From Desulfobacteraceae bacterium Eth-SRB1 (GTDB lineage Bacteria > Desulfobacterota > Desulfobacteria > Desulfobacterales > ETH-SRB1), in contig RPGP01000029.1 of assembly GCA_004193555.1 (NCBI GenBank), positions 140,976 to 204,975 of the forward strand: DNA of 64,000 bases. Direction: 5' to 3'. Positions 18,538 to 31,509 of the stretch are shown piece after piece. Numbering within the stretch: the stretch's first letter is position 1; each line of letters starts with the position of its first letter. The notes beneath the pieces are model-generated. The model was not told the DNA's origin and did not search any database. It saw only the letters and a list, made by a program, of their open reading frames with translations. A program made the translations under genes and the position numbers.

Positions 18538-18711
18538 TGATATAGCCGCAAAATTGCTCAAAATAGGCAAAAAATAAAATCTACATTCTTTAATATCAAT
18601 AGGTTATAAGTAATAATAACTTAAAGTCAGACTTTTTACGAATTTATCTATAACAGTCGGCGCATCCTGTAGTTTACCCCGGTATTGTTTGTTTTTATAA
18701 AGGAACGCTTA

Positions 18712-20046
18712 ATGACCAATATTTTATTAATTTCTATTGTCCTTATCTCTATTGCTTCGCTTGTCCTGCTTTTGATTCTCAATAAGGGTAAATCGGATGA
18801 ATGGATAAAAAAGATTGCAGGCCGGTTTGATCTTCTGAAAAACGGACAGGAGGATACCGGCCGCATTGTAAAGGAAGAAATTGCTCTGAACAGGGAGGAA
18901 ACAGCCAGGAATTCTAAAAATGCCAGGGAAGAATTAGGCAGATACCTCAAGGATTCCAGCGATTCCCTTCTTAAGCGGATGACGGAAAATGCCGGAATGC
19001 AGAAAGATCAGCTCGATTCCTTTTCAAAACTGCTGGGAGATATGACCAAACTGCATGAAGAAAAATTCAATGCAATGCGCAGGACACTGGAAAATCAGTT
19101 GAGGTCGCTTCAGGAAAATAACAGCAGGAAGCTGGATCAGATGAGGCTGATTGTTGATGAGAAGCTCCAGTCAACCCTTGAAGCCCGCCTCGGTGAGTCC
19201 TTTAAACAGGTCAGTGAACGGCTTGAGCAGGTATATAAAGGGCTGGGAGAAATGCGCAGCCTGGCTGCCGGTGTGGGTGACCTGAAGAAAGTATTAACCA
19301 ACGTGAAGACGCGTGGTACCTGGGGAGAGATCCAGTTAGGCAATATTCTGGAACAAATTTTAACTCCGGATCAATATGGTGTTAATGTGGCGACAAAGAA
19401 AAACAGCAATGACAGGGTTGAATTTGCCATAAAATTGCCGGGACAGGGCGCTGATAAGGAACAGATTGTCTGGATGCCTATTGACTCCAAATTTCCCCAG
19501 GAGGATTACCAGCGCCTGATAGATGCGCAGGAGGCGGCAGATAAAGAGCTGGCAGACAAGTCGATGAAAAATCTGGAAATCCGTATAAAGGCGGAAGCCA
19601 GGAATATTAAGGAAAAGTATCTTGACCCTCCCAATACAACCGATTTTGCCATTATGTTCTTGCCTGTGGAAGGGTTGTATGCAGAGGTATTACGGATGCC
19701 CGGGTTATGCGATTTTTTGCAGCGGGAATACCGTATTACCGTTACCGGCCCAACAACCCTGGCAGCATTGCTAAACAGCCTCCAGATGGGTTTCAGGACG
19801 CTTGCAATACAAAAGCGTTCCAGCGAAGTCTGGGAACTTCTGGGTGCTGTTAAAACAGAATTTGGTAAATTTGGTGAAGTTCTGGACAAAACCAAGAAAA
19901 AACTTAAGGAAGCTACAAACATTATTGGTCAGGCGGAAGTCCGCACCAGGGCCATTGAAAGAAAGCTTAGGAAAGTCCAGGAAATACCGCAGAACGGATC
20001 TGATGTTGATCAGGATCAAGTTAGCGCACCTTCGGTGCGGACATAA
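18712..20046 (+). CDS. rmuC: DNA recombination protein RmuC
   Basis: N-terminal TM helix, long coiled coil, then TRGTWGEIQLGNILEQ...FAIMFLPVEGLYAE, typical of RmuC. Confidence 0.85.
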   Translation: MTNILLISIVLISIASLVLLLILNKGKSDEWIKKIAGRFDLLKNGQEDTGRIVKEEIALNREETARNSKNAREELGRYLKDSSDSLLKRMTENAGMQKDQLDSFSKLLGDMTKLHEEKFNAMRRTLENQLRSLQENNSRKLDQMRLIVDEKLQSTLEARLGESFKQVSERLEQVYKGLGEMRSLAAGVGDLKKVLTNVKTRGTWGEIQLGNILEQILTPDQYGVNVATKKNSNDRVEFAIKLPGQGADKEQIVWMPIDSKFPQEDYQRLIDAQEAADKELADKSMKNLEIRIKAEARNIKEKYLDPPNTTDFAIMFLPVEGLYAEVLRMPGLCDFLQREYRITVTGPTTLAALLNSLQMGFRTLAIQKRSSEVWELLGAVKTEFGKFGEVLDKTKKKLKEATNIIGQAEVRTRAIERKLRKVQEIPQNGSDVDQDQVSAPSVRT

Positions 20047-20258
20047 GTGCCTAAAGTGAGCTAAAGTGCCTAAAATGCCTAAAGTTGTGGTACGCCTTCG
20101 GCGTGTTAGAGATTTTCAGGGCTTGGTTATAAGTTCAGGTAGAAACAAAGTGAGCAAAATTGTATGGTGAAAAAAATTAAAATTGGCAGCGCCGAAGGTG
20201 CATTCCTTAACTTTAGGCACTTTAATATACTTTAGTTCACTTTAGACACTTTTTACTT
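20045..20258. repeat. Nested palindromic word-repeat element (gtgcctaaag words)
   Basis: gtgcctaaagtgagctaaagtgcctaaaatgcctaaag ... ctttaggcactttaatatactttagttcactttagacac, with inner arms gtacgccttcggcgtg / gcgccgaaggtgc. Confidence 0.75.
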
Positions 20259-20266
20259 ATATAATT

Positions 20267-20980
20267 ATGGATAAAATCATATCAGAAACCAAGGATAAAT
20301 ACATCAAAGCTTTGATGGATATCAGCAGGGCAATAACTTCCGACCTTTACCTTGAAGATATTCTTAGACTGATCGTGATGGTTACCGCCAGGGTTACCGG
20401 GGTTGAAATTTGTTCTTTATGGCTTATTGATGAAACAGTCAGTCCCCCAATGATTCGGCTTAAAGCCACACAGGCAATTGATTCCGATTATGTGCGTGAC
20501 AGATCTTTAAACCTGGATGAAGGTGTGGTCGGCTATGTGGCTACACATAAATCCCCTCTTATTATTAAAGATGTTTTGAAGGAGTCAAAGTTTAAGGAAA
20601 AAGAGATGGCCAGGAAGCTTGGACTTGTATCTATGCTAAGTGTTCCGCTTCAGGTAAAGGATGAAAAGGTGATCGGTGTGTTTAACTGTTTTACGGCACA
20701 CCCTCATAAATTTTCAGAAACAGATGTGAATATGATAACCACGGTTGCAAACCAGGCAGCTCTGGCAATCCTTAATACTGAATTAATAGTTAAAACCAAG
20801 GTTATTCAGGAAGAGCTGGAAACGCGCAAGATGGTTGAGCGGGCCAAGGAAGTACTTATGCATCGCCGCAATAAGACCGGAGAAGAGGCATATTCCTGGA
20901 TTAGAAAACGGAGTATGGATACACGCAAATCCATGCGTTGCGTAGCCGATGCAATTCTGCTTTCAGAAGAGCTCGAATAG
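20267..20980 (+). CDS. GAF + ANTAR RNA-binding antitermination regulator
   Basis: GAF region (SLWLIDE...VVGYVATHKSPLIIKDV) plus a C-terminal ANTAR helix pattern (LETRKMVERAKEVLM...EEAYSWIRKRSMDTRKSMRCVADAIL). Confidence 0.85.
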   Translation: MDKIISETKDKYIKALMDISRAITSDLYLEDILRLIVMVTARVTGVEICSLWLIDETVSPPMIRLKATQAIDSDYVRDRSLNLDEGVVGYVATHKSPLIIKDVLKESKFKEKEMARKLGLVSMLSVPLQVKDEKVIGVFNCFTAHPHKFSETDVNMITTVANQAALAILNTELIVKTKVIQEELETRKMVERAKEVLMHRRNKTGEEAYSWIRKRSMDTRKSMRCVADAILLSEELE

Positions 20981-21056
20981 ATTTGCAAAAAAAAATATCT
21001 TGACATATTTGCTGTGTTTGGCTTAAAAAAATCAGTTTAATAATTTTACGAAAACT

Positions 21057-21109
21057 CTGTACAATGGAGTGCAGAATTTTTTTGAATATGGAAGACAAAG
21101 GCGTCTTTT
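21057..21109 (+). promoter_or_regulatory. Dual hexaloop ANTAR-target RNA (two hairpins, loops AAUGGA and AAAGGC)
   Basis: ctgtac-aatgga-gtgcag (21057-21074) and ggaagac-aaaggc-gtctttt (21090-21109). Both loops have A1 and G4. Confidence 0.7.
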
Positions 21110-21140
21110 CCCTGTAAGAGGATAGACGTCTTTTTTATTT
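21100..21140 (+). terminator. Intrinsic terminator overlapping ANTAR hairpin 2
   Basis: ggcgtcttttc (21100-21110) pairs with ggatagacgtc (21120-21130) with 1 mismatch and 2 GU pairs, followed by ttttttattt. Confidence 0.7.
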
Positions 21141-21174
21141 CTATAACAACTTAGGTAAGGAGGGTAAACAAGTT

Positions 21175-22740
21175 ATGTCATTTAGTAAACCAAATCGTAG
21201 CGCAGCTACAGTTAGTTTAACACGGGTTGATCCGGCTCCTGGGTCCGGCATTTGTGTAACCTGTCTTGATGGTTGTGAGGGGCCGTGTGAAATAGGGCGC
21301 TCTGCCTTGAAGGGACGCGAGATGCTTTATCCGCAACCCTTTGGCAAGGTCACATCAGGTTCGGAAAAGGATTATCCGATCGATTTTTCCCATTTTAATA
21401 TTCAGGGTACCTGTGTTGGAGCGGTTGGAATTGAAGCCGATTCTGATGTCGCCATATTTTCTGCAGTTGACTGTTCAACAGCCGTTGGAAAGGATAGCAG
21501 CATAAAACTTGATTTTCCTGTATTTACAGGCGCTGTTGGATCAACCGAAATTGCCAGGGTCAATTGGGAAGAGATGGCTGTCGGCGCAGCTATATCCGGC
21601 ATTATAGTGGTAGCAGGAGAAAATATATGCGGCATGGATTCGCAGGCCGAGTTTAAAAATGGTAAAATCAGCAAGTCTCCTGAGATGGAGCGCAGGATAG
21701 ACGCCTTTAAAAGATGGTATGACGGCAAGGGCGGCATCATCATTCAAGCTAATGTTGAAGATACAAAGCTTGGTGTGCCGGAATATGTAATAGAAAAGCT
21801 CGGCATAGAGATATTCGAGCTCAAATGGGGCCAGGGCGCCAAAGATATTGGCGGTGAGGTTAAACTGCCAAGCCTTGAGAGAGCATTAGAGCTAAAAAAA
21901 CGAGGGTATATTGTTTTGCCCGATCCGACCAATCCAGCTGCCCAGGAGGCCTTTAAGACAGGTGGAATCACTGAATTTGAAAGACACTCACGACTTGGAA
22001 TGGTTGATGAGGAGTCTTTTCATAAATCTGTTGAATATCTTCGCGGTGTTGGAGCAAAATATGTTACCCTTAAAACTGGTGCTTATCGTCCGGCCGATCT
22101 TGCAAGAGCCATTAAATATGCTTCAGACGCTAAAATAGACATGCTGACTATTGATGGCGCCGGCGGCGGAACAGGTATGAGTCCCTGGAGAATGATGAAT
22201 GAATGGGGCATCCCTACTGTTGAGCTCGAATGTATGGCTTACCAGATGTGTGAACGTCTGAAATCAAAGGGCGCCTATATTCCGCCTATTGCTATTGCCG
22301 GCGGTCTTTCATTAGAAGATCATATATTTAAGGCCATTGCCCTTGGAGCGCCTTATGTCAAGGCTATCTGTCTGGGAAGAGCCATGATGACAGCGGCTAT
22401 GGTGGGAAAAACTCATGGCAAATTAATGGCAGAGAAAATGGACTTGGAAGGGGAAGACATTGAAGCAGGATATCTCAAGCTGTTTGCAGTGGGCGCACAA
22501 TTAAAAGAACGTTTTGGCGCGGATTTCAGCAAACTTCCGGCCGGCGCCATTGGAATGTACTCTTATGTGGATCGCTTGCGCCAGGGCCTGCAGCAGTTTA
22601 TGGCCGGCGCAAGAAAATTTGCTCTTCAGCATGTAGATAGAAACGATCTGGTTGCTTTGACAAGAGATGCGGCTGACATATCAGGCATCCCGTATGTTAT
22701 GGAATCTGATCAAGAGGAAATTGACAAGATACTGGGATAA
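21175..22740 (+). CDS. Glutamate synthase FMN-domain (GltB domain 2) family protein, archaeal split type
   Basis: N-terminal Cys cluster CVTCLDGCEGPCEIG; WGQGAKDIGGEVKL; DGAGGGTGMSPW FMN-site motifs. Confidence 0.8.
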   Translation: MSFSKPNRSAATVSLTRVDPAPGSGICVTCLDGCEGPCEIGRSALKGREMLYPQPFGKVTSGSEKDYPIDFSHFNIQGTCVGAVGIEADSDVAIFSAVDCSTAVGKDSSIKLDFPVFTGAVGSTEIARVNWEEMAVGAAISGIIVVAGENICGMDSQAEFKNGKISKSPEMERRIDAFKRWYDGKGGIIIQANVEDTKLGVPEYVIEKLGIEIFELKWGQGAKDIGGEVKLPSLERALELKKRGYIVLPDPTNPAAQEAFKTGGITEFERHSRLGMVDEESFHKSVEYLRGVGAKYVTLKTGAYRPADLARAIKYASDAKIDMLTIDGAGGGTGMSPWRMMNEWGIPTVELECMAYQMCERLKSKGAYIPPIAIAGGLSLEDHIFKAIALGAPYVKAICLGRAMMTAAMVGKTHGKLMAEKMDLEGEDIEAGYLKLFAVGAQLKERFGADFSKLPAGAIGMYSYVDRLRQGLQQFMAGARKFALQHVDRNDLVALTRDAADISGIPYVMESDQEEIDKILG

Positions 22741-22773
22741 TTTTTGTTTTGACGAGGTCTGAAAGGAGATAAA

Positions 22774-22980
22774 ATGCTTAATGTAATTTGTAAACATAAC
22801 TGCAAGGATTGTTATGCGCTTAGAGTTTGTGCAGTACAGGCCATAAAAGATCAGCAGGGTTCAATCTATGTGGAAACTGATGATTGTATCGGCTGTGGTT
22901 GCTGCAAAACAGCCTGTGTCACCTTTGGTTACAAGGCCCTTGAAGACAAGACACCTGAATGGTTAAAAGGGGCTGCTTAA
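22774..22980 (+). CDS. Small 4Fe-4S ferredoxin-like protein
   Basis: CKDCYALRVC and CIGCGCCKTAC motifs. Confidence 0.65.
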   Translation: MLNVICKHNCKDCYALRVCAVQAIKDQQGSIYVETDDCIGCGCCKTACVTFGYKALEDKTPEWLKGAA

Positions 22981-23078
22981 CCGATTTATTGATTTCGGAA
23001 TGCGGAGTGCGGAATGCAGAGAAAAAATCCGAAATCCGCATTCCGAAATCCAGAATTATAAGACAGGGAGAATAAGAG

Positions 23079-24920
23079 ATGCACGGTTGGATTGGTCGGT
23101 GTCTGAGGGTTAACCTGACTAAAAATGATTTTAAGCTCGAAGAAATTTCTCAGGAACTCATGAATAAATTTTTAGGGGGGCGTGGGCTCGGGGTTAAAAT
23201 TCTTTTCGATGAAATTGATCCCATGGTTGATCCATTATATCCTGACAATAAGCTTATATTTGTTTCAGGCCCGCTTGTAGGCACAGGTGCTGTAACCGGA
23301 GCATCATGCAATGTGATAACAAAGAGCGCTCTTTCAGGGACAATTGCGTGCGCAAAATTGCGAGGGCATTTCGGCGCGGAATTAAAATACTCCGGTCTGG
23401 ATATGATTATCGTGGAGGGCAGGGCTGAATTTCCCGTTATTCTTTCCATTCTTGACGATAAAATTGTCATCCAGCCTGCGCTTGAGTATTGGGGCCGTAC
23501 TACATCTGAAACGGAAAACATGTTTAAAAGCAGCCTGAGCGACAGATGGGCGGCTCGTGACACATATCTCTTATCCATCGGCCCTGCAGGAGAGAAACTT
23601 GTGCCGATGGCTAATGTTATCAACGACGGTTTTTTGTCGGTTGGGGGCGCTGGTATCGGCGCAGTAATGGGCTCTAAAAATCTTAAGGCAATTGCGGTCA
23701 AGGGTAATCACTCGGTGACAGTAGCCGACGGAAACCGTTTTGTGCAGGTTGTAACAACCTTGATCAACAAACTAAACAGCGCACCCCTGACCTCTCAATC
23801 CATGTCTTCCTGGGGTTCCGCTTTTCTTGTAGGTCTTTGTAATCAAAAAGCGATATTGCCGTTTAAGAACTTTCAGAGTTCTTCATTTGAGGAATCAAAA
23901 CAGATTGGAACAGAAGCTCTGTCCAGCGCCTTTGCACTTAGAAGCAGGGGCTGTTTTGCGTGCCCGATTGCATGCATAAAGAAAGCGGATGTGGATAACC
24001 GGTTTTATAAAGGCAAAGGAATGGCTCCAACCTACCTTGCTATTGGCGCTCTGGGACTTAATTGCGGCATTACAGATCTTACCAACATCGGGATAGCCAA
24101 CATGATTTGCGGTGAAATGGGCCTGGATCCTGTTGCAGCAGGTGGAACTATTGCCACTGCCATGGAGCTTGAGAGAAAAGGGCTTTTAACAAAGGATTCT
24201 TTAAAGCTTGATTTGCGGTTTGGTAATGGAGAAGATCTGATCCAGGCGTTAACCCTTATGGCGACAAAAAAAGGGCATGTTAAAAGAATAGGGCGGGGAG
24301 CAAAGGCATTGGCAGAGGAATATGGGCATCCGGAACTTTTTATGGGCGTCAAAAATATACCACTTGCCCCGTTTGACCCACGTGCAATCCAGGGAATGGG
24401 ACTTCACTTCGCAACATCCAATTATGGCCCACACCACCTCTATGCATACACTTTTATTGATGAAGTCCTGAATGTACATGAAAAATCGGATCCATGGACT
24501 ACGGAAGGAAAACCTGAACTGGTAAAGCGGTTCCAGGATATTACTGCTGTGATGGATTCATTAGGGTTGTGCAACTGGTCGTTGATGGGGCTTAAATTCA
24601 ATAATTTTGTACCCTTGATTAATAGCTGCTTAGGCACAAGCTACAAGGCTGAAGATTTACTCCAGACAGGTGAGAGGGTCTGGAATCTGGAGAGGCTGTT
24701 CAATATGCGAGCCGGGTTTAATCGAAGTCATGATAGCCTGCCTGAGAGATTTTATAATGAGCCGATTGAAGATGGGCCTGCCAAGGGGCAAATCAGCAAG
24801 GCCAATGAAATGCTGGATGACTACTATGGACTTCGTGGTTGGGATAATAAAGGCCAGCCGTCCGCAGAGATCTTAAGAGCATTAGAACTGGAGAGTAGAG
24901 ATGCCAAGAATAAAGATTGA
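23079..24920 (+). CDS. aor: Tungsten-type aldehyde:ferredoxin oxidoreductase (AOR family)
   Basis: N-terminal GRCLRVNLT...GGRGLG, the CFACPIAC 4Fe-4S motif, and GLCNW near the C-terminus. Confidence 0.85.
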   Translation: MHGWIGRCLRVNLTKNDFKLEEISQELMNKFLGGRGLGVKILFDEIDPMVDPLYPDNKLIFVSGPLVGTGAVTGASCNVITKSALSGTIACAKLRGHFGAELKYSGLDMIIVEGRAEFPVILSILDDKIVIQPALEYWGRTTSETENMFKSSLSDRWAARDTYLLSIGPAGEKLVPMANVINDGFLSVGGAGIGAVMGSKNLKAIAVKGNHSVTVADGNRFVQVVTTLINKLNSAPLTSQSMSSWGSAFLVGLCNQKAILPFKNFQSSSFEESKQIGTEALSSAFALRSRGCFACPIACIKKADVDNRFYKGKGMAPTYLAIGALGLNCGITDLTNIGIANMICGEMGLDPVAAGGTIATAMELERKGLLTKDSLKLDLRFGNGEDLIQALTLMATKKGHVKRIGRGAKALAEEYGHPELFMGVKNIPLAPFDPRAIQGMGLHFATSNYGPHHLYAYTFIDEVLNVHEKSDPWTTEGKPELVKRFQDITAVMDSLGLCNWSLMGLKFNNFVPLINSCLGTSYKAEDLLQTGERVWNLERLFNMRAGFNRSHDSLPERFYNEPIEDGPAKGQISKANEMLDDYYGLRGWDNKGQPSAEILRALELESRDAKNKD

Positions 24921-25275
24921 TCACAATAAGTGCACCGGTTGCAGGCATTGCGAAACCGCCTGTTCTCTCAATCATGTGGCCGGAGTCGCCAATCCGAGAA
25001 GATCTCGAATAAGAGTTTTTAGAGAAGGCACAACCTATTTTCCGACTATTGCCGGTCCTTTTGTGGATGCTGCCTGCACCTCAAAAAATGATCTGATTAT
25101 CGGTGATCATACTTACGATATGTGTCTGATCTGCAGGGCATCCTGTCCTGAGAAGCCATTTTTTATTGAAGCTGAAACAGGTTTCCCTCTAAAATGCGAT
25201 TTTTGCGGCATTCCTCCAAGTCCTTCCTGCGTAAGGTGGTGCAATAGCGGGGCATTGGAGCTGGTGGAAGATTAA
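24901..25275 (+). CDS. 4Fe-4S dicluster electron-transfer protein (AOR-associated)
   Basis: CTGCRHCETAC, CLICRASCP and CDFCG motifs. It overlaps the AOR 3' end by 20 nt. Confidence 0.7.
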   Translation: MPRIKIDHNKCTGCRHCETACSLNHVAGVANPRRSRIRVFREGTTYFPTIAGPFVDAACTSKNDLIIGDHTYDMCLICRASCPEKPFFIEAETGFPLKCDFCGIPPSPSCVRWCNSGALELVED

Positions 25276-25505
25276 ATATGTGGTCGAGTGGTGGTTGGGC
25301 CGTCCTACGTGGCGACTGGTCGAGCGGTGAATTGGTCGAGTGGTGAATTTGGTCAAAAGAACAAATTAAAAGATGAACGTCCAACATCCAACATCGAATT
25401 TTCAATAAGGTATTCTGCCAATTTGTAAACCGGCGGAGAGAAGCGATTTCATCATTCGATGTTCGACGTTGGATGTTCGATGTTGGACGTTCAAAAAAAT
25501 TCACC
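25276..25505. repeat. Nested palindromic word-repeat element (ggtcgagtggtg and ccaacatccaacatcg words)
   Basis: aacgtccaacatccaacatcgaa ... ttcgatgttcgacgttggatgttcgatgttggacgtt. Outer ggtcgag(t/c)ggtgaat repeats. Confidence 0.75.
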
Positions 25506-25622
25506 TATATCCTATGATACCGAATTCATTAGGCATAAAATGGAAATTTCTATACTATCAAGTTAAGAAAAATGATTTGAACCCTGAACCTCTGAACGGT
25601 TACTTTTATAATTTCTTGTACA

Positions 25623-28600
25623 ATGAAAAATAATAATAGACATAACAATCTTGTTGGAGCTGTAATGGTGGTTGGCGGAGGAATTGCCGGCATCCAGGCA
25701 TCTCTCGATCTTGCCGATTTGGGATATTTTGTTTACCTGGTAGAAAAAAGCGCTTCTATTGGCGGAGTTATGGCCAGGCTGGACAAAACTTTTCCGACCA
25801 ATGATTGCGCCATCTGAATTCTTGCGCCCAAGCTGGTCGAGGCCGGTCGGTCTCCAAATATTAAGATTATCACCAATGCGCAGCTCATGTCAGTGGATGG
25901 CAATGCCGGAAATTTTATCGCCGGCGTCCGTTGCATTCCAAGATATGTGGACGAAAAACTTTGCACAGCCTGTGGAACCTGCACCAGTTACTGTCCTGTA
26001 ACCATCAAGGATCAATTTAACGACGGACTCTCTTTAACAAAAGCCATACATATAGATTATCAGCAGGCCATACCCGCGGCAAACGTTGTGAATGCAGACT
26101 TTTGTCTATTTTTGACAAGGCGTGAATGCAAACAGTGTGAGAGGGTCTGCCTTGCTAATGCTATCGATTTTAAACAGCAGCCGCAGGTTATTGATATAAA
26201 TGTCGGCGCTATTATTCTGTCTCCCGGCTTTGGCAGGATAGATAAAAAAGTCTTATGTAAATATGGTTACGGGATATCTCCCGATGTAATGACCGGTATG
26301 GAATTTGAGCGCATAACATCGGCTTCCGGGCCGTTCATGGGCAAAATTGTCAGGCCCTCAGATGGCCGGCATCCTGAACGGATTGCCTTTTTTCAGTGTA
26401 TCGGCAGTAGAGATCTGCCAAGTGGCAATGGATATTGTTCATCAGTTTGCTGTATGTATGCCATCAAGGAGGCGCTTGTTGCCAAAGACCATGCCCCGGA
26501 TATTGATATAGCCATTTTTTACATGGATATGCGAACCCAGGGCAAGGAATTCGATTATACAAGGATCCGGGCCAGGGAGAAGGGCATCCGTTTTATAAGG
26601 AGTCGCGTCGGCGGTGTTCACGCCAAAGACAAAATTTTCGAAGTTTTTTATGTAAATGAGCAGGGGGAGCATATAAGAGAAGATTTTGATATGATAGTTC
26701 TTCCCGAAGGTCTTGAATCACCAAAGGATGCTAAACTGCTGGCAGGAGCAGCCTGTATTGATTTAAATAAGTATGATTTTTGCATGACCAGCTCATATGC
26801 TCCTCTGGAAGCAAATCGCTCGGGAATATTTGTGGCAGGGGCGTTTCAGGGGCCAAAAGATGTGCCTGAGAGCGTGACAGATGCAAGCGGCGCAGCGGCC
26901 CTTGTCTCGGAACTGCTTTGCAAAGCCAGGGATACCCAGGTTAAAGCACGAATTTATCCCGAAGAGAAAGAGATCGAAAAGGAGCTTCGCATTGGAGTGT
27001 TTATTTGCTCCTGTGGAAGTAATATCGGTGGTGTGGTTGATGTGCCGGCTGTTGCCGGGTATGCAGCCGGTCTTGAAAATGTCGTCGCAGTTGATACAAA
27101 TCTTTATAGCTGTGCTCAAAACACTCAGGAGGCAATTACTGAAAAGATCAAGGTAAATGGATTAAATCGTGTAGTTGTTGCGGCCTGTAGCCCGAGAACA
27201 CACGAGCCCTTATTCCAGGAGACACTTAAAAACGCCGGATTAAACCGGAGCCTGTTTGAAATGGCCAATATCAGGGATCATTGCTCATGGGTTCATGTAA
27301 ATACTCCTGAGGAGGCTACTGAGAAATCAAAGGACCTTGTAAGAATGGCTGTTGCCAAGGCGAGCCTGCTTCAACCTATGAGAGAACAGGAAATTCCCGT
27401 GATACCAAAAGCTCTCGTTATTGGAAGCGGCATTTCCGGGATGACGGCTGCTTTAAGTATCGCCAGGCAGGGTTTTGAGTGTTATCTTGTTGAAAAATCA
27501 CACAAACTCGGAGGCAATATAAAACGTCTTCGGTATCTGATAACCGGCGATGACCCCGGTAGAATTTTTACTGAGCTGGAAAGTGATGTCAGATCAAACC
27601 CTTTAATACATGTATATGAGAATGCTGTTATAGATAACATAACAGGTTATATCGGAAATTTTGCTACTACTTTGCAGATGCCGGAACATTCAGAAATGTT
27701 GGAGCATGGCGTAGTTGTTATAGCAACAGGCGGAATGCCTTATGAGCCCAAACAATACCTTTATGGAAAATCAAAACAGGTTGTCACACAGCTTGAACTG
27801 GAAGAAATGATAGCCGGCGGTAAAGGATTAGAAAATGTTCATGATATCGTAATGATACAGTGTGTCGGTTCCAGAGGTGAAGATCTGTCTTATTGCAGCA
27901 AGGTGTGTTGTTCACAGGCCATAAAAAATGCTTTAAAGATTCTGGAATATAATCCAGCGGCAAATATTACAATCCTTTACAGAGATATCCGCACTTATGG
28001 ATTTGATGAAGACTACTATCAATTAGCCAGGGAAAAGGGGGTAACTTTCATCCGTTTTGAAAAAGATTATCCTCCTGAAGTGACTGAAAAGGATGGTTTT
28101 ATCAATGTAGATGTTTTTGACAGGATATTGGGGGCAAAATTATCTATAAAACCGGATCTAATTATCCTTAGTGTAGGGATAACTCCAGCTCCTGCGCAGG
28201 ATCTGGCTAAAATGCTCAAGATTCCTTTAACCCGGGACGGGTTTTTTCTGGAGGCACACCCAAAACTCAGGCCGGTTGAATTTTCAGTGGAGGGAATCTA
28301 CCTTTGCGGCGCAGCCCATTCACCAAAACCTGTATCAGAGTCTATTGCCCAGGCAAAGGCAGCGGCAGGTAAAGCTTGCGTTCCGTTGACCAGGGGGTTT
28401 GTTGCTGTAGAACCTATTGTATCATCTGTTGATATGGATGCCTGTATCGGATGCAGGATTTGTGAAAGCCTGTGCCCGTATGCAGCTATCAGGATGATAA
28501 AGGCAGGCAAAAGGAAAAAGGCCGAAACTATTTCCGCTTCGTGTAAGGGATGTGGGATATGTGCTTCACACTGCCCGGCAATGGCTATATCAATGGCTGG

Positions 28601-28649
28601 ATTCACTAACGAACAGATTTTGTCACAAATACATGCTTTTGGAGAATGA
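25623..28649 (+). CDS. hdrA: HdrA-like heterodisulfide reductase flavoprotein with two FAD domains; selenocysteine at in-frame UGA 25815-25817
   Basis: ORFs 25623-25817 and 25887-28649 are in the same frame. Reading through gives [18 protein letters not shown], matching the conserved HdrA CSMC-ILxPK site with Cys replaced by Sec. GGGIAGIQ and GSGISGM dinucleotide folds; several CxxCxxCxxxCP motifs. Confidence 0.8.
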
Positions 28650-28652
28650 ATT

Positions 28653-29300
28653 TTGAGCAGTATGATGAAAAATAAATCATTTGAACCAAAAATACTCGGC
28701 TTTCTTTGCAACTGGTGTTGTTATGCAGCCGCCGATTCCGCCGGCATTGCACGATTTCAATATCCGCCCAATATCCGCGTCGTAAGAGTGATGTGTACCG
28801 GAAGAATAGATCCTCTGTTTATTGTCGAAGCCTTTTCTGCCGGCGCAGACGGCGTATTTGTAGGCGGGTGACAGCTCGGTGAATGTCATTACCAGGTTGG
28901 TAATTATGACGCAATGGTAACTGCCTGTTTTATTCAGGAAATATTAAACTGCTTGCAGATAAATTCAGATAGATTGCTTCTGGATTGGGCATCTGCGGCT
29001 GAAGCGCCGCTGTATGTTGAGTTAATAACCGCATTTACAAACCGGATAAAAGAATTAGGGCCTTTAGGGCATGTTGAAGGAATAGAACTTAATGATTTGC
29101 AATCAAAACTTTCAGCGGCCGGCAGGGCTGTTAAAAGTATTAAAATGCGGACACGATTCGCAAAGTTAACCCGGTATTTTCGTGAGTCAAAAGACTACTC
29201 TAAAAGTGTTATTCAGGCCAGAATTGTCGAAAAGCTAAGGGGTCCAATCTGCCAGGAAATTGAAAAGCAGGAAGTAGCAGTTCGGAGGATGGATAATTGA
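28653..29300 (+). CDS. mvhD: MvhD-like (methyl-viologen hydrogenase delta / Hdr-associated) protein; selenocysteine at in-frame UGA 28869-28871
   Basis: ORFs 28653-28871 and 28914-29300 share a frame. Reading through gives [22 protein letters not shown], matching the MvhD GC-HxGDCHY motif. The start may be the ATG at 28662. Confidence 0.8.
28885..28910 (+). promoter_or_regulatory. Candidate bacterial SECIS hairpin 14 nt downstream of the mvhD UGA
   Basis: gtcattacc-AGGUU-ggtaattatgac: a 6-bp upper stem plus a bulged lower stem, with GGU in the apical loop. Confidence 0.45.
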
Positions 29301-31075
29301 CAATTACTTCTCATAAAGTGGACCCGCGATTCAAATTTGAAGTAGCCTCCATGGCAGGTGGTGAACTGGTCAAAGGTTGTTTTGACTGCGGAACATGCAC
29401 TGGTGTATGCCCTGTCAGTGAAGTTGAACCAGGCTTTGATCCAAGAAAAATCCTTCATATGATTCGGCTCGGGCTTAAAGAGCAGGTCCTGAGTTCTACT
29501 GCTATATGGTTTTGCACACACTGTGACACATGCGCATTGGTATGTCCGCAGAATGTGCGGTTCAGCAGCATTGTGGATGTTCTTCGCGAATTAGCTGTCA
29601 AGGAAGGTTATGCGGAACTCAAAACAAAGGAACCATTTGCCACAAGCCCGTGCAAGGCAGCCTGTCCCGCCCATATAAGCATACCTGGTTTTATTGCGGC
29701 AGTTTTACAGGGGAAATACAGAGAAGGCCTGAGGCTGATAAAAGAAGAGATGCCCTTTCCGGCAATTTGCGGTCGTGTCTGTCCCCACCCATGCGAAGCG
29801 GCATGCAACAGGAACAGTTCAGATAAACCTGTAGCAATTGAGTATTTAAAACGTTTTCTGGCTGATGAGGATATTTTGTCGGATGAATCATATATCCCTC
29901 AAAAAAAGCAAAGTAGAACAGAAAAAATCGGTGTTGTCGGATCCGGGCCGGCTGGCTTAACTGTCGCTTATTATCTGTCTATTGAAGGTTATCCTGTTAC
30001 GGTTTTTGAAAAACTCCCTGTAGCAGGCGGCATGATGGCTGTTGGCATACCGGAATTCCGCCTTCCACGAAATATTCTCAACGCTGAAATAGATATTATC
30101 AAGAAATTAGGCGTTGATATCAAACTCAATTTTTCAATCGGAAAGGATTGCAGCCTTGCCGAGCTGCAAAAGAATTATAGAGCCGTTTTTATTGGTGCAG
30201 GATGTTGCAAATCAATGAAACTCGGTATTGCCGGTGAAGATGTCAGAGAAGATGAGGATACAGGTATTATTGACGGTCTTATGTTCTTACAGGATATACA
30301 TCTCGGAAACCTTCCTGCTTCCAGAGGCAGGCTAATTGTTATCGGCGGCGGCAATACGGCGGTTGATTGCGCGCGTGTAGCTATACGGCTGGGTTATAGA
30401 AATGTTGCTGTTTTGTATAGAAGAACCAGGGAGGAGATGCCGGCAAACTCATGGGAGGTTGATGAAACAATTGAGGAGGGAATAGACATTCAGTTTTTGA
30501 CGGCGCCGGTGCGAATTATATCGGATGACGGGAAGGTGTCAGGCGTGGAATGTGTTCGAATGGAATTGGGTGAGCCGGATGAATCAGGAAGACGAAGACC
30601 TGTGCCTGTCCAGGGATCTGAATTTATCGTTAAAACAAACGTTATAGTATCGGCTATCGGACAGACGCCTGATTTGAAATGCATGACTGACAAATGCGAA
30701 ATTAATATTTCAAACAGGGGGCTTGTTGCGGCTGATCTTCAAACAGGCCTTACAAATATTCCCGGAATATTTGCCGGAGGTGATGTGGTCTCAGGCCCCA
30801 GAACGGTCGTGGAAGCGGTTGCGTTTGGGAAAAGAGCGGCGTTAAGTATTGATAAATATTTAAGAGGTAAAGATATTAGCTCGGGACGCAAAATGAATTG
30901 GACTGGAATTAAACTGATATCTAATGAGATAATATATAAGGAAAGGGAGCAAATGCCCCGGCTTCCTCTTGCCGAGTGTACAAAAAGTTTTAAAGAAATA
31001 GAGTCAGGTTTTAACAGGGAACAGGCCAAAAGAGAAGCCGAACGCTGTTTAAAAATATGTGGTCTTCAAAAATGA
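29297..31075 (+). CDS. HdrC-like 4Fe-4S domain fused to a GltD/NfnB-like NAD(P)H:FAD oxidoreductase
   Basis: CFDCGTCTGVCP...CTHCDTCALVCP (HdrC-like); CKAACPAH...CGRVCPHPCEAACNR and VGSGPAGL, GGGNTAVDCAR (GltD-like). The TTG start overlaps the mvhD stop; an alternative ATG is at 29351. Confidence 0.8.
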   Translation: MTITSHKVDPRFKFEVASMAGGELVKGCFDCGTCTGVCPVSEVEPGFDPRKILHMIRLGLKEQVLSSTAIWFCTHCDTCALVCPQNVRFSSIVDVLRELAVKEGYAELKTKEPFATSPCKAACPAHISIPGFIAAVLQGKYREGLRLIKEEMPFPAICGRVCPHPCEAACNRNSSDKPVAIEYLKRFLADEDILSDESYIPQKKQSRTEKIGVVGSGPAGLTVAYYLSIEGYPVTVFEKLPVAGGMMAVGIPEFRLPRNILNAEIDIIKKLGVDIKLNFSIGKDCSLAELQKNYRAVFIGAGCCKSMKLGIAGEDVREDEDTGIIDGLMFLQDIHLGNLPASRGRLIVIGGGNTAVDCARVAIRLGYRNVAVLYRRTREEMPANSWEVDETIEEGIDIQFLTAPVRIISDDGKVSGVECVRMELGEPDESGRRRPVPVQGSEFIVKTNVIVSAIGQTPDLKCMTDKCEINISNRGLVAADLQTGLTNIPGIFAGGDVVSGPRTVVEAVAFGKRAALSIDKYLRGKDISSGRKMNWTGIKLISNEIIYKEREQMPRLPLAECTKSFKEIESGFNREQAKREAERCLKICGLQK

Positions 31076-31086
31076 TGGCTTTGTAT

Positions 31087-31509
31087 CTATAATACCGCAA
31101 CCTTTGGGGCAGTACCTTCTTGAACCCGTGTTTTACCGCGGCGGATCTTGACACGTGGAAAATCGATAGCTGCTTTTTGGGAATAGTCTAATTCCTTTCT
31201 TCCTCTCAATAAGGCTATAAGCAAACCCTCTTCGCGACAGCGACCTTCATGAGCACATTTCATTCGAGTTTTTTCAAAGTAATTAAGGGGGGCAAGGCAG
31301 TTGAATGCACTGGCATTTACGCTGTCTTCCGAATGAGCCATACCATCGTAAACCAGCTTCTTTTTCTTTCGCAGTATTTCTACCCCCAGGGCAAGATCGG
31401 GGCAATCATCCTTAAATCTGGGACATGAGAAGCAGCGCTCATAAAATTTCAGAGGGGCCTGACAGTCAAATTCGAGGGCATGGATTATTCCTGACGTGGC
31501 ATTTTTCAT
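31087..31509 (-). CDS. Cysteine-rich hypothetical protein with an internal duplication
   Basis: Two modules: ALEFDCQAPLKFYERCFSCPRFKDDC... and ASAFNCLAPLNYFEKTRMKCAHEGRC... Confidence 0.45.
   Translation of the reverse strand: MKNATSGIIHALEFDCQAPLKFYERCFSCPRFKDDCPDLALGVEILRKKKKLVYDGMAHSEDSVNASAFNCLAPLNYFEKTRMKCAHEGRCREEGLLIALLRGRKELDYSQKAAIDFPRVKIRRGKTRVQEGTAPKVAVL

Follow-up and report, generated by a model that had tools for sequence, protein, structure and literature searches.

An in-frame UGA in a fused double hdrA-like gene of Desulfobacteraceae bacterium Eth-SRB1 is very probably read as selenocysteine and is followed by a conserved SECIS-like hairpin

Gene callers routinely split HdrA selenoprotein genes in two. 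Selenocysteine (Sec) at the CxxC motif of HdrA has been known in Deltaproteobacteria since 2006, with bacterial Sec-HdrA/HdrL proteins described from Syntrophobacter fumaroxidans, Syntrophus aciditrophicus and Desulfobacterium autotrophicum (Zhang et al., 2006, PMC1794560; Strittmatter et al., 2009, PMC2702500). The occurrence of Sec-HdrA in both methanococci and Deltaproteobacteria, mentioned in a first-pass annotation of the DNA studied here, is documented in the literature (PMC1794560, PMC2702500, PMC13518236). In M. maripaludis HdrA the equivalent residue is Sec197 (PMC13518236), and Cys197 is an inter-protomer ligand of the N-terminal cluster (PMC9012536). ANME HdrA3/4 and the HdrA of Moorella thermoacetica consist of a half that has Cys197 and lacks the N-terminal domain, fused to or in tandem with a half of the converse composition, which implies a built-in heterodimer (Chadwick et al., 2022, PMC9012536). 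For the signal that directs Sec insertion in bacteria, the bSECIS model specifies an apical loop of 3-9 nt with a G within its first two positions, a stem of 4-16 bp, a distance from the UGA of 16-37 nt and a minimum free energy (MFE) of -7.5 kcal/mol or lower (PMC13188914).

We analysed a 64,000-nucleotide stretch of the Eth-SRB1 genome (the window, from whose first letter all unprefixed coordinates are counted), in which an in-frame TGA splits an hdrA-like open reading frame:

25623..28649, + strand: hdrA-like CDS, fused double HdrA-like flavoprotein (1008 aa, predicted U65; stop TGA 28647-28649)
25806..25817, + strand: CxxU motif (Cys62, TGC 25806-25808; predicted Sec65, TGA 25815-25817)

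The TGA at 25815-25817 is the sole internal TGA of the 1008-codon frame 25623-28649; when it is read as U, the frame is open throughout and gives a 1008-residue product. ORF calling with table 11 returns 25623-25817 and 25887-28649 (920 codons), with an ATG present at 25887. The first-pass annotation was correct that these two ORFs lie in the same frame and that the 69 nt between them are free of stops, and its U-containing translation was reproduced exactly on reading TGA as U. We consider it very likely that 25623-28649 encodes one 1008-residue fused double HdrA-like protein in which UGA codon 65 is recoded as Sec.

The frame can be read directly from the DNA, and so can the match of the UGA codon to Cys and Sec codons in homologues. 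In the phmmer alignment (14->146), U65 falls on Cys197 of HdrA 5odc_A without gaps, which bears out the proposal that Sec occupies the conserved Cys of the CxxC-ILxPK motif. Cys is invariant in the columns of both Cys62 and residue 65 in an alignment of 54 full-length homologues. The codon aligned with the UGA was TGA or TGT/TGC, and never a gap, both in 30 loci drawn from 40 related genomes and in 80 additional GTDB loci, so that the homologue alignment suggested beforehand found Cys or Sec in every case; in the GTDB set the position was U 14 times and C 79 times. Coding sequence is conserved on both sides of the UGA in these Sec/Cys pairs.

The second line of evidence is a hairpin downstream of the UGA, whose conservation is likewise observed directly:

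25839..25854, + strand: candidate SECIS hairpin GAGGCC[GGUC]GGUCUC (stem 25839-25844 with 25849-25854, loop 25845-25848)

This element agrees with the bSECIS model in its 4-nt loop beginning with GG, its 6-bp stem and its UGA-to-loop spacing of 27 nt, and it has a free energy of -7.7 kcal/mol alone and -8.8 kcal/mol as the centroid structure. Codons 73-77 (GAG GCC GGT CGG TCT) are codon-invariant in 15 Sec forms that share 58-91% DNA identity. Gene-wide, only 4 of 200 amino-acid-invariant codons with at least 4-fold degeneracy are also codon-invariant, and all 4 lie inside the hairpin; the longest invariant nucleotide run of the gene among the 15 Sec-type relatives, 17 nt at 25839-25855, begins at its first base. 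Four Cys-type orthologues use the synonymous codons GGC AGG TCA or GGG CGA TCA, which destroy the stem. Loop and register are unchanged in another Sec-HdrA gene of this genome, a paralogue with GGAUGCC[GGUC]GGCAUCC, and in a further locus, L119b (GGAUGUC[GGUC]GGCAUCC). Pairing at the six core positions is 100%, and a compensatory change from G-C to U-A occurs; the covariation amounts to one compensatory pair in two sequences, that same-genome paralogue and L119b. Folding of the 66 nt 3' of the UGA shows no gain in stability over shuffled sequence (z = +0.96), and a permissive Rfam scan of 25600-29400 gave two chance matches and no SECIS family; the SECIS call therefore rests on comparative evidence, which supports the 25839-25854 hairpin as the conserved SECIS element of this hdrA, 6 nt downstream of a stem proposed earlier.

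The genome also carries the machinery to use such a signal. The search for it that the first-pass annotation had recommended found tRNA-Sec, the selC product (76 bits, anticodon UCA, discriminator G73), together with selA (599 bits), selB (382 bits) and selD (373 bits), the last with an in-frame TGA of its own and hence Sec-containing. From these observations we infer SelB binding and selenium insertion by the standard bacterial mechanism: with the ribosome at the UGA at 25815-25817, the mRNA hairpin at 25839-25854 would bind SelB carrying Sec-tRNA-Sec, and the delivered Sec-tRNA-Sec would outcompete release factor 2, placing Sec at codon 65.

Sec may not be the only amino acid inserted at this codon. 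A contig of the genome (C40) has a pair of identical tRNA-Sec-like genes of 92 nt, which score 52 bits against RF01852 and have the anticodon UCA. Both show an A1:U72 pair and discriminator U73 along with an acceptor stem of 8 bp. Behind each lies a selB-like gene; one of these is intact and scores 290 bits, over the cut-off, and the other is split. A selC*-selB* arrangement of this kind has been described for Desulfobacterales (PMC5389517), and the C40 tRNA genes also agree with the tRNA-ReC criteria of PMC13582414, which ask for a tRNA no shorter than 80 nt that has U73 and the anticodon UCA or GCA and is followed by a second selB; in genomes of this description, that work warns, UGA may be read as Cys. 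On these grounds, SECIS-assisted decoding of the UGA could yield Cys in part or under certain conditions, through a tRNA-Sec-shaped tRNA-Cys (tRNA-ReC, encoded by selC*) and a SelB* factor of its own. Against this, the canonical Sec system is complete, Sec-containing SelD included, and genomes with an A1:U72/UCA selC* were reported always to have a dedicated cysS* adjoining selB* (PMC5389517). Beside the C40 selB* we found no CysRS-like gene, the next gene downstream being an HGD-D dehydratase subunit, although a second cysS-like gene lies elsewhere in the genome (C1:153757-155121). We regard such partial or conditional Cys insertion as unlikely, and it would be compatible with Sec insertion as a second route. 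We give the same low but appreciable weight to its fuller form, in which two systems serve one UGA and one GGUC hairpin, SelB inserting Sec and the duplicated selC*/SelB* inserting Cys. If so, HdrA could still be produced under selenium scarcity, and Sec or Cys isoforms of the HdrA-like protein and of its MvhD-like neighbour (see below) would arise from one gene each according to selenium supply, in contrast to Methanococcus, where the Sec and Cys versions are separate paralogues.

A different question is whether the hairpin has been placed in the correct register. The first-pass annotation had tentatively proposed an overlapping stem:

25833..25850, + strand: CUGGUCG[AGGC]CGGUCGG, overlapping the candidate SECIS; probably not a functional helix here

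This stem can be drawn with 7 pairs and a G at the second loop position. Moreover, the guess was a reasonable one, since a sister 'EVGRH' clade of Sec-HdrA keeps the same register as a perfect and invariant helix, CUGGUCG[AGGU]CGGCCGG. In the clade of the present gene, however, its 5' arm varies freely (CUGGUC, UUAGUU, CUGGUG, AUGGUA), which introduces mismatches, and the invariant run begins only at 25839, leaving out 25833-25838. Its 84% of paired cells come with no compensatory change and are no better than those of shuffles or slid controls, and its -3.5 kcal/mol falls short of the required -7.5 kcal/mol (PMC13188914). It is therefore improbable that the functional SECIS is the 25833-25850 stem, and we place it at 25839-25854 instead. 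The hairpin adds a well-supported example to the known SECIS elements, one in which sister HdrA clades differ by 6 nt in the register used.

Still less likely is a pseudogene or a pair of genes, with termination at 25817 and either independent translation of the 920-codon ORF that begins at 25887 or none. Table-11 ORF calling yields precisely such a split, and the second ORF has its ATG. However, the TGA and both flanking frames persist, uninterrupted by further stops, across many lineages at protein identities as low as 47-56%; the 64-residue piece would comprise the FAD-binding GxGxxG and one half of the CxxC, of no use apart from the rest; and synonymous constraint downstream of codon 65 is found precisely in the TGA forms. 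The earlier judgement that recoding is far likelier than a pseudogene is borne out by the same conservation and constraint, and we put the chance of the split being real as very small. Least probable of all, to the point of being negligible, is a TGT/TGC that was misread or misassembled, which the existence of Cys-type orthologues with TGT might suggest: the identical TGA is found in G001 and G013, assembled independently (91% identity), and at more than 25 further loci; its recurrence in separate assemblies with protein identities of 91%, about 64% and about 56% rules out sequencing error; and the synonymous codons that form the hairpin, which Cys forms lack, come with it every time.

The 1008-residue Sec protein is clearly related to HdrA. 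Matches by phmmer to the HdrA chains 8rvu_a (E=2e-192) and 5odc_A (E=8.6e-192) fall in three stretches, and an AF2 model (pLDDT 88.8; low confidence at residues 54-62, immediately N-terminal of the Sec65 region) matched 5odc_A in Foldseek (E=1.9e-60, TMt 0.78). Pfam matches agree with the features of the HdrA superfamily that it has, namely the thioredoxin-reductase-like FAD domain, FPTNDCxxC, an N-terminal [4Fe-4S] domain and ferredoxin domains. It scored 976 bits against a cut-off of 1100 for NCBIfam HdrA2, and we accordingly call it HdrA-like and not an equivalog. With 709 against 1400 bits for NCBIfam HdrA, and with the partners described below, it does not fall within the methanogen-type HdrABC CoM-S-S-CoB reductase equivalog. 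The first half of the protein has the CxxU and lacks the N-terminal domain; the second has the N-terminal Fe-S domain and a Cys cluster in residues 462-554, with Cys462/464/497/522 as the predicted cluster site, and lacks Cys197. Since the CxxU and the N-terminal domain are split between them, the two halves probably act as an intramolecular pseudo-heterodimer. For Sec65, we infer that it takes the place of the second Cys in the CxxC that is invariant in the thioredoxin-reductase-like domain; from homologous structures, it may be a ligand to the N-terminal [4Fe-4S] cluster of the partner protomer, or may form a Cys-Sec redox pair between the FAD and the N-terminal cluster.

The neighbouring genes point to an electron-transfer operon:

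23079..24920, + strand: aldehyde:ferredoxin oxidoreductase (aor), upstream of the hdrA-like gene (1aor, E=1.2e-157)
24901..25275, + strand: BamC-like Fe-S subunit, upstream of the hdrA-like gene (BamC 4z3w_E, 1.4e-30)
28653..29300, + strand: MvhD-like [2Fe-2S] subunit gene, directly downstream (in-frame TGA 28869-28871, predicted Sec codon, U73)
29297..31075, + strand: HdrC-like dicluster domain fused to a GltD/NfnB-like NAD(P)H flavoprotein (Pfam and NCBIfam matches)

U73 of the MvhD-like protein falls on the first Cys of GGC-HLGDC-HY in MvhD 5odc_D and 8rvu_F, and its codon is followed by the hairpin UUACCA[GGU]UGGUAA. The start of the HdrC-GltD-like gene overlaps the end of the mvhD-like gene. 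The HdrA-MvhD-GltD-like gene order is conserved in relatives, and the closest of these (L023, L024, L038-L040) keep aor and the Fe-S subunit beside hdrA. A CCG-domain HdrB was absent from the ORFs at 18685-31509, where HdrC occurs only as the GltD-fused domain. Upstream of the operon there is a GAF-ANTAR regulator, as well as a GltB-FMN-like gene. We also considered a class II benzoyl-CoA reductase Bam cluster and rejected it; the AOR-family subunit matched the Pyrococcus AOR 1aor (1.2e-157) far better than BamB 4z3w_A (1.4e-39), and only the small Fe-S subunit is BamC-like. The finding matters chiefly for annotation. Table-11 calling fragments both the hdrA-like and the MvhD-like gene, and the operon would look damaged or as though it contained small orphan ORFs; read correctly, it would be an intact selenium-dependent HdrA-MvhD-GltD-like electron-transfer module adjoining an aldehyde:ferredoxin oxidoreductase.

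How does this locus compare with known systems? The hairpin resembles the E. coli fdhF-type SECIS and the bSECIS consensus in being short and within the coding sequence, with a 4-nt apical loop starting GGU, spacing within 16-37 nt and an MFE at or below -7.5 kcal/mol. It differs from the fdhF type in its unrelated stem sequence and its loop 27 nt from the UGA, and it has no identified bulged U and no match to an Rfam model. Archaeal SECIS elements lie in an untranslated region, whereas that of the Eth-SRB1 hdrA would be a bacterial in-frame hairpin.

With Methanococcales Sec-HdrA and the Cys forms (5ODC, 8RVU, 7BKB) the protein shares the CxxC/CxxU motif (FPTNDCxxC/U-ILxPK), the same residue, Cys197/Sec197, by ungapped alignment, and the thioredoxin-reductase-like FAD fold, N-terminal cluster domain and ferredoxin domains. 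Methanococcales Hdr likewise has a neighbouring MvhD/VhuD partner that is a selenoprotein too (PMC13518236). Unlike these HdrA proteins, that of Eth-SRB1 joins two incomplete HdrA units in one chain, and its operon has no HdrB and has HdrC only as a domain on the GltD-like protein. Because the protein lies under the NCBIfam HdrA cut-offs, CoM-S-S-CoB reductase function is not implied.

The locus also resembles the Sec-HdrA family of Deltaproteobacteria and Clostridia. The nearest relatives are Desulfobacterales/Desulfobacteraceae MAGs, lineage agrees at phylum level, and fused hdrA-hdrA, a co-located Sec-containing mvhD and the bacterial type of SECIS are held in common. The gene is an ordinary member of this selenoprotein family described in 2006, and in that sense already known. 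Its surroundings differ: the described bacterial Sec-HdrA operons combine glpC-hdrA-frhD-frhG-frhA of a hydrogenase, while that of Eth-SRB1 consists of aor, the Fe-S subunit, hdrA, mvhD and the hdrC-gltD-like gene. Finally, the complementary halves resemble those of ANME HdrA3/4 and Moorella thermoacetica HdrA (Chadwick et al., 2022, PMC9012536), but in Eth-SRB1 their order is reversed, the Cys197-type half coming first, and the Cys197 position itself is very probably Sec.

The frame description in the first-pass annotation proved exact: ORFs 25623-25817 and 25887-28649 share one frame, the TGA lies at 25815-25817, and translation of 25623-28646 with TGA as U yields a single continuous product of 1008 residues without further stops, in which residue 65 is set in the context ...[30 protein letters not shown].... 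TGA is also the normal terminator both of this hdrA-like gene (25623-28649, plus strand) and of the next gene, and has therefore not been reassigned genome-wide. The Ile codon immediately 5' of the UGA (25812-25814) is ATC in 15/15 genes of the Sec type, and Cys forms have either ATC or ATT; the invariant ATC may reflect a codon-context constraint on recoding.

In the product, Pfam recognises two Rossmann modules that bind FAD/NAD(P), at residues 14-57 and 597-716, and at the C-terminus a 2x[4Fe-4S] ferredoxin (935-992). A phmmer search of the PDB matched it to the HdrA chains of three solved complexes, with E from 2e-192 to 4e-189, over three segments:

Residues 14-330: HdrA 146-458, thioredoxin-reductase-like domain with inserted ferredoxin
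Residues 447-606: HdrA 4-163, N-terminal cluster domain
Residues 796-1005: C-terminal part of HdrA

Two HdrA units, both incomplete, are thus fused in this protein. The AF2 model, for which 54 homologues were used (pLDDT 88.8, pTM 0.90), had the solved HdrA chain 5odc_A as its top structural match (E=1.9e-60, TMt 0.78). Since its NCBIfam score falls under the curated cut-offs for methanogen HdrA/HdrA2 and no HdrB gene was found among the neighbouring ORFs, the name HdrA-like is used here, with no heterodisulfide substrate implied.

The alignment to 5odc_A (phmmer) has no gaps from query residue 14 (chain residue 146) through the motif, so that U65 falls on the second Cys of FPTNDC-S-I-C, which is Cys197. 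Through this residue one HdrA protomer ligates the N-terminal [4Fe-4S] cluster of its partner (Chadwick et al., PMC9012536); in the M. maripaludis super-assembly (2026) it is Sec197, and a Cys-Sec selenylsulfide relay between FAD and cluster A3 has been proposed there (PMC13518236). The first half of the fused protein has the CxxU without an N-terminal domain; the second has the N-terminal domain and no Cys at the position matching U65, where the sequence is [20 protein letters not shown]. Complementary halves of this kind are reported for fused HdrAs (PMC9012536); here the order of the halves is reversed. We infer from the sequence that both halves may work as a built-in heterodimer, in which the cluster of residues ~455-560 would be served by Sec65.

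The proposed Sec reading is matched by a full selA/selB/selC/selD set in the source genome, which is 98% complete: a canonical tRNA-Sec (76 bits, anticodon UCA, 8-bp acceptor stem, discriminator G), selA (599 bits), selB (382 bits) and selD (373 bits). The last (C40:928886-929812) encodes a Sec-type SelD with one in-frame TGA of its own, and selenophosphate synthesis thus relies on the recoding system that it supplies.

Insertion of Cys at part of the UGA readings, as a second route beside Sec, is the main alternative. The same contig (C40:940029-944342, minus strand; L002, L003, L011, L015) carries a tandem duplication of a selC*-like tRNA and a selB-like gene, flanked by an FdhB-like Fe-S gene upstream and an HGD-D dehydratase gene downstream, which is the selC*-selB* layout described in Desulfobacterales (PMC5389517). 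The two tRNA-Sec-like genes are identical (92 nt, anticodon UCA, A1:U72, 8-bp acceptor stem, discriminator U73) and fit the tRNA-ReC definition of PMC13582414, a paper which cautions that genomes with tRNA-ReC may decode UGA as Cys. Only the first selB* copy is intact (290 bits); the second is broken into a GTPase ORF and a remainder, and is therefore frameshifted, a pseudogene or an assembly error. A1:U72/UCA selC* is reported to come with cysS* (PMC5389517), and none was found among the genes adjacent to selC*/selB*. Overall, we regard a significant Cys route at the hdrA-like UGA as unlikely. Elsewhere in the genome, a second cysS-like gene (C1:153757-155121; 381 bits, above cut-off, in a 778-codon open frame) lies ~3 kb downstream of a Cys-type HdrA paralogue.

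Homologues bear out the Sec reading. A six-frame search found full-length homologues in 40/40 related genomes, many with exactly one in-frame TGA. At the 30 best loci, 24 genes had TGA at the aligned codon and 9 had TGT/TGC; at 80 further GTDB loci these numbers were 14 and 79. At no locus in either set was there a gap, and the expectation of Cys or Sec at this codon thus held throughout. In the 54-sequence alignment the columns of Cys62 and of position 65 do not vary. The TGA recurs in assemblies made independently, whose proteins are 91%, ~64% and ~56% identical, and this rules out both sequencing error and a pseudogene. The source genome itself has at least one more Sec-type HdrA paralogue (C40:281034-~283500; UILGPKMTDAGRHP, hairpin GGAUGCC[GGUC]GGCAUCC) as well as the full-length Cys-type one (C1:147663-150671, 47% identity), and Sec and Cys isoforms therefore coexist.

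For the SECIS, two registers downstream of the UGA have to be weighed:

25839-25854, plus strand: GAGGCC[GGUC]GGUCUC, the only hairpin in the RNAfold centroid of the 66 nt after the UGA (-8.8 kcal/mol)
25833-25850, plus strand: CUGGUCG[AGGC]CGGUCGG, the overlapping stem tentatively proposed at first pass (-3.5 kcal/mol)

The whole 66-nt region was not more stable than shuffles in RNAfold, and no Rfam family matched the hairpin; it is comparative evidence that is decisive for this predicted element. In a codon alignment of 15 Sec-type genes (58-91% identical in DNA), codons 73-77 (GAG GCC GGT CGG TCT) are the same in 15/15 while all flanking codons vary. Gene-wide, only four of the 200 amino-acid-invariant codons with at least fourfold degeneracy are codon-invariant, and all four (A74, G75, R76, S77) lie inside the hairpin; the longest invariant nucleotide run in the 3-kb gene is the 17 nt at 25839-25855. 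In four Cys-type orthologues the EAGRS peptide is unchanged but uses GGC AGG TCA or GGG CGA TCA, codons that abolish the stem. The GGUC loop also stays in register in two Sec-type paralogues whose stems differ: GGAUGUC[GGUC]GGCAUCC in L119b and GGAUGCC[GGUC]GGCAUCC in the source genome's own C40 paralogue. Across ten distinct sequences pairing at the six core pairs is complete (100% of cells), with one compensatory change (G-C to U-A) and a covariation score reached by only 5/500 shuffles; this covariation is modest because independent changes are few. With a 4-nt loop opened by GG, a 6-bp stem, a spacing of 27 nt and -7.7 kcal/mol alone, the hairpin falls within all four constraints of the published bSECIS model (PMC13188914).

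The coordinates of the hairpin after the UGA shift to 25839-25854: in the window's clade the 5' arm of the 25833-25850 stem varies freely, and that stem is 84% paired with zero compensatory changes, not better than controls. In a more distant Sec-HdrA clade (...PKLVEVGRH...; L042, L043, L046, L047, L050, L051, L102, L105, L111, L119, L120) that register, 6 nt upstream, is a perfect invariant helix, CUGGUCG[AGGU]CGGCCGG (-9.1 kcal/mol); the position of the SECIS thus differs by 6 nt between sister clades over a nearly identical peptide. Neither helix was found in a third clade, VESGRH (L059, L060, L087).

The next gene (28653-29300) is MvhD-like and a candidate selenoprotein too: its in-frame TGA (28869-28871, U73), when aligned to solved MvhD, falls on the first Cys of GGC-HLGDC-HY. 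A hairpin with a GGU loop, UUACCA[GGU]UGGUAA, lies ~20 nt downstream. Its product extends ~75 residues past the MvhD C-terminus. An HdrC-domain/GltD-like NAD(P)H flavoprotein gene follows, and upstream of hdrA lie the genes of a genuine aldehyde:ferredoxin oxidoreductase (AOR) and of an Fe-S subunit resembling BamC. A Bam benzoyl-CoA reductase cluster was considered and rejected, the AOR not being BamB-like. Many relatives share the HdrA-MvhD-GltD-like order, and the upstream pair is conserved in the closest of them, the nearest named ones being Desulfobacterales/Desulfobacteraceae MAGs. Across 23079-28649, a genome of the same genus (G013:C86) is 88-91% identical to the window throughout; in G019:C225 the AOR and Fe-S genes share 88.5% DNA identity with it, while hdrA, between them and mvhD, shares only 66-77% (55% protein). 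The operon is thus a mosaic, and the comparison suggests replacement of the hdrA allele within conserved surroundings.

The value of the analysis lies in annotation repair, refined SECIS coordinates and the coexistence of a predicted Cys-inserting, selC*/selB*-like system. The finding at the hdrA-like UGA is right and cleanly supported, with Sec as the very probable residue, and its biology is ordinary: Sec-HdrA, fused hdrA-hdrA genes and co-located Sec-MvhD/FrhD were catalogued in Deltaproteobacteria in 2006 (PMC1794560), and Sec-HdrA in D. autotrophicum in 2009 (PMC2702500).
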